A DNA stretch of 64,000 nt from positions 22,037 to 86,036 of the IMG/VR virus record IMGVR_UViG_3300023179_006134. One strand, written 5' to 3'. The stretch is from a virus. A model generated the notes under the pieces. That model ran no database searches, was not told the DNA's origin, and saw only the letters and a program-made list of their open reading frames with translations. A program made the position numbers and the translations under genes. Shown one piece after another: positions 50,476-51,894 of this stretch. How positions within the stretch are numbered: position 1 is the stretch's first letter; every line of letters begins with the position of its first letter.

Positions 50476-50711
50476 AACTCAGTCTCAACAAACTTATTTT
50501 TATTGTCTGTATATCAGCAGTTAGTTTTGTTGGATTAAATTTTATTGCCTGCAACTTTATGATACCAGGATCTATCATTAGTGCTAATGTATTAGGAGGA
50601 CTAAAAAATCCTCCACCCTTAGATTGTAAAGAATCTGAGAGAAAAGGATATGAGACCCTCTTAGCAATTTTAACTACAGTAATTGCTTTGAGAACTAAAG
50701 TAGAAGATTAA
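50472..50711 (+). CDS. Small membrane protein (possible holin-like lysis accessory)
   Basis: Two hydrophobic segments; converges on the lysozyme. Confidence 0.45.
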   Translation: MKLSLNKLIFIVCISAVSFVGLNFIACNFMIPGSIISANVLGGLKNPPPLDCKESERKGYETLLAILTTVIALRTKVED

Positions 50712-51202
50712 GAAATCCAGAGTTTTCCTTCTGCCTTTCTTCTTCTTAATAGTCCTGCTTCAACTTTACTACCAGGATTACGATATAGTTCTAATGTTTT
50801 TGGAATTGCATCCCAGTTTTTTTCACGTAAATGGTGAGTGATTGAACTAAAATTTCCAGATCCATAAAAACTAACCCCAAGATTGTAAGCAAAACTAAGA
50901 AGAGCACCACGTTTTCCGTCAGACATTTCACTCCAATAAGGTATTTTTGAAAGTGTAGGAATAAACTCATTTCTAATTTGACTTATCAAGAGATCATCAG
51001 CAACCTTTTGTGAAATCTTATCCCCAATTTTAAATGGTTTGCCAAGGAAATCTTTGGTGCTTCCCCAACCAATAGTAATCGGAAGATGTCCAGACAGAGG
51101 ATCTGGATATGCCTGTAAATGACAACCTTCAAACTCTTTAATAAGATCTACTCCTTTTACGGGTAAATATACTTTATCGGTAAAAGGAGTAGAACTTGTT
51201 AC
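50708..51202 (-). CDS. GH24 lysozyme domain with no own start codon (-1 frame of the upstream gene)
   Basis: Open frame VTSSTPFTDKVYLPVKGVDLIKEFEGCHLQAYPDP...ITIGWG...SFAYNLG...GLLRRRKAE. The first ATG/GTG/TTG (50989) lies after the catalytic E/D/T. Confidence 0.85.
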   Translation of the reverse strand, partial: VTSSTPFTDKVYLPVKGVDLIKEFEGCHLQAYPDPLSGHLPITIGWGSTKDFLGKPFKIGDKISQKVADDLLISQIRNEFIPTLSKIPYWSEMSDGKRGALLSFAYNLGVSFYGSGNFSSITHHLREKNWDAIPKTLELYRNPGSKVEAGLLRRRKAEGKLWIS

Positions 51203-51208
51203 TTTTTT
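51147..51208 (-). other. Programmed -1 frameshift cassette: A_AAA_AAG plus stimulatory stem-loop
   Basis: Heptamer at 51202-51208 immediately before TAA; perfect 14-bp stem 51180-51193 / 51147-51160 starting 8 nt downstream. Confidence 0.82.
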
Positions 51209-51894
51209 GCGTCAAAAATTCTACCCCATCCATCATTACCATTTGGGCACCAACGAGCAGATAGATCTGATTTCTTATAGATAGCACCTTTGCCATTATA
51301 AACATCACCTGTATAACCATCGTTGAGTGATCCATAAGGATCGTTTACAACATAGTCACCATTCTGTGTCTTACCAATCACTACAACCATGTGGCCGCCC
51401 GTAGGATTAGACAAAGAACCACGATGTAGGATGCCAATAACAACAGGTTTGCCAGCACTAAGACTTTTATCAAGATCAGCAAAAGAAAGATTATAACTAA
51501 AATTTGACTGAATTCCATAATTTGCGAGAACTTGTGTCTGCACAGAATGATCAGTTGTATCACCGATAGCAAATACTTTTTGAATATATGCATCATCTCC
51601 TTGTGCTCCTTTAAGAGTTCCAGGTTTGAAATACTCAAGACACATCGCACAAGCAGAGGAATTACAAGTGCGATTTGCATCTCTATAATTATCTGTTTGT
51701 GGATAATAAGGAACTTCTAAACGAATATCAGATTTGGGTTTTTCAATTTTGGTTCTATAAATACGAACCCAATTTGAGTCATCATTCAACAATACTGAAT
51801 CGTTTAGATCCTTTTCAAGTTGATCTACAGCAGCAACATGTTTTGGATTTTTCGAATCATAAAATTCAAAAAACTTATGAAGATCGATTTTCAT
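51199..51894 (-). CDS. Peptidase C39-like protein (putative endolysin)
   Basis: VPYYPQ..N......C..SA.AM, GGHMVVVIG, VNDPYG give Q/C/H/D catalytic residues. Confidence 0.82.
   Translation of the reverse strand: MKIDLHKFFEFYDSKNPKHVAAVDQLEKDLNDSVLLNDDSNWVRIYRTKIEKPKSDIRLEVPYYPQTDNYRDANRTCNSSACAMCLEYFKPGTLKGAQGDDAYIQKVFAIGDTTDHSVQTQVLANYGIQSNFSYNLSFADLDKSLSAGKPVVIGILHRGSLSNPTGGHMVVVIGKTQNGDYVVNDPYGSLNDGYTGDVYNGKGAIYKKSDLSARWCPNGNDGWGRIFDAKK

Follow-up and report, generated by a model that had tools for sequence, protein, structure and literature searches.

A probable programmed -1 frameshift cassette joining a cell-wall peptidase to a start-less lysozyme in T4-like cyanophages

Introduction

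How can a phage translate a lysozyme gene that has no start codon of its own? This question is raised by a locus on the minus strand of a 64,000-nucleotide (nt) stretch of viral DNA, called the window below (positions 22,037 to 86,036 of record IMGVR_UViG_3300023179_006134), which comes from an 86-kb IMG/VR fragment of a lake-water T4-like cyanophage. Flanked by hli (51928..52176) and psbA (48943..50037), the locus consists of a peptidase gene that ends at a run of six A's and a complete lysozyme in the -1 frame behind it. An earlier note on this DNA took the pair to be a single locus that makes both a 231-amino-acid (aa) peptidase and a fusion of about 395 aa, a proposal that the comparative evidence presented here supports. 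We put the probability at about 85% that this cell-wall peptidase gene ends in a cassette for programmed -1 ribosomal frameshifting, of the dnaX/IS3 type. The start-less lysozyme is most likely translated only through the -1 slip, here as well as in phages S-PM2 and S-CAM7 and many relatives. The mechanism itself is textbook; what would be new is its place at a lysis-enzyme locus.

Structure of the locus

All elements of the cassette lie on the minus strand. The open reading frame (ORF) of a C39-like papain-fold cysteine peptidase (51894..51199, 231 aa) ends with GAC GCA AAA AAG TAA, and its last codons hold the heptamer A_AAA_AAG (51208..51202) in X_XXY_YYZ register with the peptidase frame; this is the proposed -1 shift site. 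The 0-frame stop TAA (51201..51199), which terminates the 231-aa product and is read as GTA ACA in the -1 frame, follows directly. A spacer of 8 nt (51201..51194) separates the heptamer from a stem-loop (51193..51147), in which a 5' arm (51193..51180) and a 3' arm (51160..51147) enclose a 19-nt loop (51179..51161) and form a perfect helix of 14 base pairs (bp). The sequence of the peptidase end, the spacer, the stem and the loop had all been described in the earlier note and are confirmed at these coordinates. Codons of the linker contain the 5' arm, and those for V-K-G-V-D, immediately ahead of LIKEFEG, contain the 3' arm. A TGA closes the -1 frame just 5' of the heptamer, after which the frame is open for 167 codons plus a stop (51211..50708). 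It encodes a linker and then a complete GH24 lysozyme, and after the slip it would be read from the GTA at 51202. This ORF has no ATG, GTG or TTG ahead of the catalytic Glu of EFEG, and the first canonical start is a TTG at 50989, which would give a truncated ORF of 93 aa, the one to be expected from a gene caller. The predicted fusion has 231 + 164 = 395 aa.

In the mechanism that we propose, the majority of ribosomes would read GCA AAA AAG and terminate at TAA, leaving the 231-aa peptidase. A minority would stall at the 14-bp stem-loop 8 nt downstream with two Lys-tRNAs on A_AAA_AAG; the tRNAs would slip one base back and the ribosome would read on through GTA ACA AGT..., giving a 395-aa peptidase-linker-GH24 lysozyme. 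The whole lysozyme output of the locus would be derived from the shift, and the two products would be made at a set ratio. The occurrence and rate of slippage, its ribosomal rather than transcriptional nature and the role of the products in host lysis are points that we infer.

Both halves of the predicted fusion can be assigned to enzyme families. The peptidase ORF matches PF13529 (Peptidase_C39_2; E 5.7e-15, 56.6 bits against a cut-off of 24), and the -1 ORF matches PF00959 (Phage_lysozyme; E 4.5e-21, 75.9 bits against a cut-off of 22.3) over positions 1-125 of the 125 in the profile, so the lysozyme is complete, as had been claimed for it. PHROG 3617 spans both ORFs colinearly, with the peptidase at positions 1-235 and the lysozyme ORF at 241-404. 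Further PHROG matches, 10051 (peptidase), 28234 and 7, carry the name 'endolysin', and it is solely these family names that suggest an endolysin role for the products. The motifs EFEG, PDP and TIGWG, which we take to supply the catalytic Glu, Asp and Thr of GH24 enzymes, are present in the window and in 37 of 37 relatives, and the peptidase residues C77, G167 and H168 are invariant across 62 fusions. A sequence search of the PDB with the peptidase gave 0 matches at E <= 1, and the lysozyme ORF matched the endolysin 7m5i (E 1.7e-10) in an alignment that begins at ORF residue 14. For structure, a natural fusion with seven A's (locus L008) was modelled with AlphaFold from a 62-row alignment. The model has a mean predicted local distance difference test score (pLDDT) of 87.8 and two confident domains; only residues 233-240, the junction linker, fall below 50 and are presumably disordered. 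Foldseek places its N-terminal half with the C39-like papain-fold peptidases 3erv (E 1.1e-4) and 6mpz, and its C-terminal half with GH24 endolysins, with a template modelling score of 0.86 to 9kbq.

Residues 2-49 of the peptidase (window 51748-51891, minus strand) form an N-terminal module that is also found on stand-alone lysozymes of relatives. It is 50% identical to residues 3-49 of the 222-aa stand-alone lysozyme of phage DSL-LC03 (L003 2274-2939; E 4e-13), and a more distant version is carried by lysozymes of the L125 type. The idea that the lysozyme needs this module, and hence a peptidase fusion, fits the DSL-LC03 enzyme, which has its own copy, but is contradicted by the short lysozyme of the S-SRM01 type, which has its own start and lacks the module.

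Integrity of the A-run and of the lysozyme ORF

One more A would place the two ORFs in frame, and relatives with seven A's exist. The six A's could be an error in what is really an in-frame A7 gene, or the lysozyme could be a frameshift pseudogene. The length of the run was checked in Logan contigs, where a minority of A7 reads could escape notice. In three DNA runs, each from a different study (2017-2019), contigs of 803 nt (depth 53), 935 nt (word depth 1021) and 110 nt span the six A's free of gaps, and no insertion or deletion is reported in them; one of the three DNA runs may be the window's own source sample. The junction GCA AAA AAG TAA is identical in both records of S-PM2, the 2005 genome and a re-sequenced deletion mutant. 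Because the contigs are gap-free and the S-PM2 junction is the same in two records, a run of seven A's, which the earlier note had named as the finding that would undo its proposal, is not what is present; the A6 run is genuine.

Decay fares no better as an explanation. The start-less lysozyme ORFs of relatives that are complete are intact in 37 of 37 cases (158-173 codons), and their ratio of nonsynonymous to synonymous substitution rates (dN/dS) relative to the window is about 0.22 at a dS of about 1.45, compared with 0.12 for the peptidase. These ratios indicate that the start-less ORF is under purifying selection. A scan of IMG/VR for the composite pattern (heptamer-TAR, 28-58 nt, then I-K-E-F-E-G, with the stem unspecified) returned 97 stretches. 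Artefact and decay are already contradicted by these data, and we give them next to no weight.

Contigs of the lake samples bear on variation in this region. In run X2, where the main form has a depth of 1021, a contig at depth 32.6 connects 50785 with 51096 and omits 310 nt of the lysozyme ORF; it may represent a diverged relative or a deletion variant. Other contigs of runs X1 and X2 track the peptidase to about 51215 and then diverge into the reverse complement of a junction of the L016/L017 type, in which the peptidase is paired with a 224-aa protein. Because these contigs switch at about 51215, the frameshift-type architecture and that with the 224-aa protein share one water body.

Conservation of the junction in relatives

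Relatives were collected from IMG/VR with the peptidase (363 matches, 80 kept) and with a natural fusion (197 matches, 80 kept) as queries, and the peptidase was recognized in 169 loci. Duplicate contigs are present, so unique junctions were counted. There are 75 between a peptidase and a GH24 lysozyme, 22 in frame and 53 split, and the lysozyme lies in the -1 frame in all 53 split junctions and in the +1 frame in none. An ATG or GTG at the stop overlap is found in 10 of the 53, which are either of the S-SRM01-like ATGA type or have a lysozyme that brings an N-terminal module of its own. No such start is present in the remaining 43, and each of these holds a slippery heptamer in register (41 A_AAA_AAG and 2 U_UUU_UUU). 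In every A-type junction the codon that gives the first A of the heptamer is GTA, GCA, ATA or ACA; the last base of this codon is always A in the frameshift type, and at the homologous codon of the 19 old in-frame junctions it is A once. Between the heptamer and the 0-frame stop, relatives have either no codon or a single one. The expectation that homologues would conserve an AAAAAAG-stop is thereby borne out, including in S-PM2, which has been sequenced twice.

The tally leaves out locus L014/L136, which is of the frameshift type and whose contig has a second, truncated peptidase-like ORF. In L014 (IMG/VR 3300027977_000008) this ORF, of 175 aa by motif scan, lies 3' of the frameshift-type lysozyme. 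A class labelled 'PEPT_ONLY' (62 of 169 loci; 20 tree rows) is bounded by a regular expression and flanks of 600 nt, and says nothing on the absence of a lysozyme.

What lies downstream of the peptidase can differ. In a sister group (L015 2684-3355, L019, L027 and others) the peptidase stop overlaps, as ATGA, the start of a 224-aa protein instead of a GH24 lysozyme, and in Synechococcus phage S-CREM1 (L004 1459-2637) a single 393-aa ORF has the reversed order, with the lysozyme at residues 13-149 and the peptidase at 223-351. Swapped downstream domains had been anticipated for homologues, and relatives are seen with another protein downstream or with the two domains reversed; from the 224-aa protein in place of the lysozyme, the downstream enzyme module appears to be swappable. 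The 224-aa protein of the L015 type has a weakly similar N-terminal module (E 0.005). Its assignment as a GH19-type hydrolase, based on a motif, was dropped because Pfam gave no match at E <= 0.01.

The fusion of the two domains is not peculiar to a shifted product. The best 120 database homologues of the natural fusion comprise 88 peptidase-lysozyme proteins that are fused in frame (about 390-410 aa), 16 with the reversed order and 16 that the regular expression leaves unclassified. Isolates of ACG-2014f have a 405-aa in-frame fusion, and variants of the cassette itself with seven A's exist (L008-L011, L121). Together with the span of PHROG 3617, these in-frame relatives indicate that the peptidase-lysozyme fusion is a natural protein, as the earlier note had it.

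The downstream stem-loop

Folding of the RNA from 51215 to 51130 (51215..51130) gives -24.8 kcal/mol (z-score -5.75), and 0 of 200 dinucleotide shuffles are equally stable. A search of Rfam returned nothing close to a gathering score, and its four weak hairpin matches (E 0.16-0.46) are chance. Covariation was followed in 28 unique junctions of two stem families, aligned with MAFFT and with the A7 locus L008 left out. In a helix of 15 pairs, 87.8% of cells are paired, compared with 34-50% if the 3' partners are slid by 1-3 columns. Both sides have changed in 9 of the 15 stem pairs (33 cells), which bears out the compensatory changes predicted for homologues, and the covariation score is reached by 0 of 500 shuffles. 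The arms of both families code for the same peptides (S-T-P and G-V-D), and it is the wobble bases that swap together between U-A and A-U, as in UCU ACU CC / GG AGU AGA versus UCA ACA CC / GG UGU UGA. Judged from this covariation, the stem is selected as RNA. Other lineages have unrelated arm sequences; in S-CAM7 a GC-richer helix of 8 bp lies 5 nt past the U-run (z-score -3.66).

The strength of the stem differs between classes of junction. Frameshift-type junctions (n = 42) have a median longest helix of 10.5 bp (range 8-14) and a median z-score of -2.58, whereas the values are 7 bp and -1.08 for in-frame junctions (n = 22) and 7 bp and -0.04 for own-start junctions (n = 10). By Mann-Whitney test on the z-scores, the frameshift type differs from the in-frame type with p = 5.7e-6 and from the own-start type with p = 3.4e-5. 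Only three in-frame junctions have helices of 11-13 bp, and all three have kept the A-run: L116 (= L008) and L121, each with seven A's, and L120. These look like recent conversions. Across all loci, 66 unique junctions match the scan pattern, 38 of them from scan loci only. An uninterrupted helix of at least 8 bp is present in 63 of the 66, and in 68% no more than 5% of synonymous recodings are as stable. The stem goes with the need to shift, and is weak in own-start junctions and in old in-frame fusions.

This distribution can be used to weigh two other ways of making the lysozyme. Free lysozyme could arise by independent initiation, or by termination and reinitiation, at a non-canonical start such as the AUU of LIKEFEG, with the stem-loop regulating that start. 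In the window an AAGGAG does lie inside the 3' arm, 8 nt ahead of the ATT codon, and some relatives start a short lysozyme at an ATGA or GTGA overlap. However, the AAGGAG is missing from the other stem families, the stem is weak in junctions that have a genuine start, and the window offers no canonical start before the catalytic Glu. An ATT start would also remove the N-terminal helix and cut the fold, because solved endolysins align from ORF residue 14. We therefore regard initiation of this kind as very improbable.

Alternatively, the slippage could be transcriptional, with RNA polymerase adding one A to the A6 run, or altering the U8 run of the S-CAM7 type, so that part of the mRNAs encode an in-frame fusion. 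Homopolymer runs do stand at the junction, the eight U's of the S-CAM7 type are of a plausible length for polymerase slippage, and the natural A7 variants in DNA demonstrate that run length can change. Six A's, on the other hand, are short for efficient polymerase slippage. Polymerase slippage also leaves unexplained the strict X_XXY_YYZ register in 43 of 43 junctions, as well as why the stem-loop 2-8 nt downstream covaries and why own-start junctions have lost it. Thermus dnaX is a known example of the transcriptional route (described in passages of the recoding review PMC5009743). At the cyanophage junctions we consider this route very unlikely.

Weight of the evidence for ribosomal frameshifting

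Passages of PMC5009743 describe A_AAA_AAG as the most shift-prone -1 site in Escherichia coli, because a single tRNA-Lys reads both codons, a condition that is given there for about half of bacteria. The window has no tRNA genes. The draft genome of one Synechococcus (picocyanobacterial), used as a host proxy, gave 35 tRNA matches. Among the 30 that were read, tRNA-Lys(UUU) is present and tRNA-Lys(CUU) absent; the other five matches are 82-87 nt long. This set is suggestive in that it fits a high shiftiness of A_AAA_AAG.

Several points weigh against the frameshift reading and should be considered together. The evidence for it is comparative throughout; six RNA runs contain small parts of the stretch, and in the one compared with it, X15, the contigs leave 51188-51267 uncovered. 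The sequences that were counted are related, and the shuffle controls leave phylogenetic signal in. The heptamer alone is unremarkable in this A+T-rich window, where it occurs 48 times compared with 41.1 +/- 6.4 expected; it is the features in combination, and the conservation of that combination, that carry the frameshift reading. GCA AAA AAG also codes for a conserved A-K-K tail, and the heptamer by itself is not diagnostic because this coding persists in 4 of 10 own-start junctions. A clear Shine-Dalgarno-like 5' stimulator was looked for upstream of the heptamer and none was identified. Only the G-rich codons of GWGR are found there, about 15 nt away (the stimulator of dnaX, which not every such cassette has, sits at 10-14 nt), and since these codons are protein-fixed in every class of junction, a separate 5' signal is unreadable. 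The tRNA-Lys set of the proxy may not be that of the true host, and with 35 tRNA matches in all a CUU species could have been missed. Finally, it is hard to see what advantage a fixed ratio would give, because relatives live with in-frame fusions and with separate or coupled genes.

Comparison with known systems

The cassette resembles E. coli dnaX (tau/gamma) in its A_AAA_AAG site, its 3' stem-loop a few nt downstream and its two products that share an N-terminal part. It is unlike dnaX in that it belongs to another gene family at a lysis-enzyme locus, shows no clear 5' stimulator and has a sister lineage with U_UUU_UUU. In the OrfA/OrfAB systems of the IS3 family, such as IS911 and IS150, A_AAA_AAG is found near the end of the first ORF, a structure lies downstream, and the fusion adds a catalytic domain. 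The phage arrangement shares these three properties but differs in that both of its parts are predicted cell-wall enzymes and a simple hairpin takes the place of a three-way junction as its stimulator; the IS911 structure is covered in passages of PMC5009743.

The same passages describe a 'reversed' dnaX of some bacteria, in which the shift gives the long product and the 0-frame stop comes directly after the site, as it does in the phage cassette. They also cover the tail assembly chaperones of the lambda G/GT type, a conserved phage -1 shift through which overlapping ORFs yield one short and one long protein; these are structural-assembly proteins rather than lytic enzymes, and use other slippery sites. 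Lysis loci that make two proteins are described in parts of PMC3111421 for mycobacteriophage Ms6 lysA, with an in-frame internal start, and for phage vML3, with a lysin and an overlapping gene. Unlike the cassette, neither involves a slippery heptamer with a stem-loop. The in-frame fusions of cyanomyoviruses (ACG-2014f gp211, PHROG 3617) have homologous domains in the same order and the same kind of linker, with ...AKVE/AKVT... at the junction where the shifted product would have ...AKKVE/AKKVT.... They differ in being one ORF with no stop and no long stem, and in having the fusion as their only product.

Full-text searches of the literature, with subscription papers and supplements outside their view, found no report of -1 recoding for a cyanophage lysis gene or endolysin. 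Term look-ups in PMC5009743 and in the PRFect paper likewise returned no cyanophage or endolysin frameshift case from the parts of these sources that were covered, which agrees with the claim that no such recoding had been described in cyanophage lysis genes. The PRFect paper does name 'lysins' among frameshift-containing genes, citing Shearman 1994 (lactococcal), a case that is described elsewhere as a lysin with a holin-like gene overlapping it.

Annotation and the neighbouring ORF

Standard annotation had been expected to yield a truncated lysozyme, and the records of S-PM2 and S-CAM7 agree, calling 'lysins' of 72 aa and 90 aa, respectively. The two ORFs are joined across the frameshift in 0 of 9 annotated phage-record stretches, which represent eight distinct phage genomes.

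A 79-aa ORF with hydrophobic stretches (window 50472-50711, plus strand) converges on the lysozyme ORF, and the two overlap by 4 nt at the lysozyme stop. Neither Pfam nor PHROG gives a match for it, and S-PM2 has a homologue in the corresponding position (L001 2672-3022, minus strand). No holin was identified; as a guess, this ORF could be a holin-like membrane partner of the lysis enzymes.

Origin of the cassette

The old in-frame junctions read GCN AAR GTA GAA (A-K-V-E), and the frameshift type reads GCA AAA AAG TAG AA, a string that is longer by two A's and otherwise identical. The addition of two A's would create the heptamer and the stop in one step. In the U-run type the shift falls in V-F-F codons a few bases upstream, and the same hidden TAG is used.

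A quick FastTree phylogeny of 115 peptidases, in which 22 of 112 inner branches are starred, was used for three starred nodes only. The U-run group (support 100) lies inside a starred clade of nine rows (support 95) with six in-frame rows. This clade is nested in turn in one of 25 rows (support 99), in which the other 22 rows are all in frame. All 41 A-type rows belong to the opposite clade of 90 rows (support 99). Because the U-run group nests among in-frame rows and the A-type rows are in the other clade, the A_AAA_AAG and U_UUU_UUU cassettes likely had two origins.

Implications for cyanophage lysis

Taken jointly, these data could be read as describing an evolvable switch for lysis-enzyme dosage, a proposal that we put forward tentatively and consider rather doubtful in its full form. 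The cassette would have arisen at least twice, once with A_AAA_AAG in an S-PM2-like clade and once in the S-CAM7 clade, where U_UUU_UUU is nested among in-frame fusions. Changes in run length would then flip the locus between the fusion only (A4 or A7), the peptidase with a set fraction of fusion (A6 with the stem) and coupled separate genes. If this is true, frameshift efficiency would set the amount of lysozyme per cell, and hence the timing of lysis or the burst. Output could also track the translation state of the host, for example the supply of Lys-tRNA in light- or nutrient-limited cyanobacteria, and the cassette would be the first conserved recoding signal over a phage cell-wall hydrolase.

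The frameshift reading itself has consequences for annotation and for the study of recoding. In the S-PM2 and S-CAM7 references and in the 97 IMG/VR stretches the lysozyme call is truncated or missing, whereas what is actually made is probably a bifunctional enzyme of 395 aa. Conserved -1 frameshifts of bacterial viruses are few beyond tail chaperones, transposases and dnaX. With its clean covariation, its natural 'mutants' (A7, A4 and own-start) and a second independent slip site, this family offers a ready comparative system for what cyanobacterial ribosomes need of a heptamer and a stem. The reading is simple to test, because S-PM2 and S-CAM7 grow on Synechococcus WH7803, and it would suggest a mechanism, open to experiment, through which the abundant cyanophages of marine and fresh waters may set the ratio of two wall-degrading activities.

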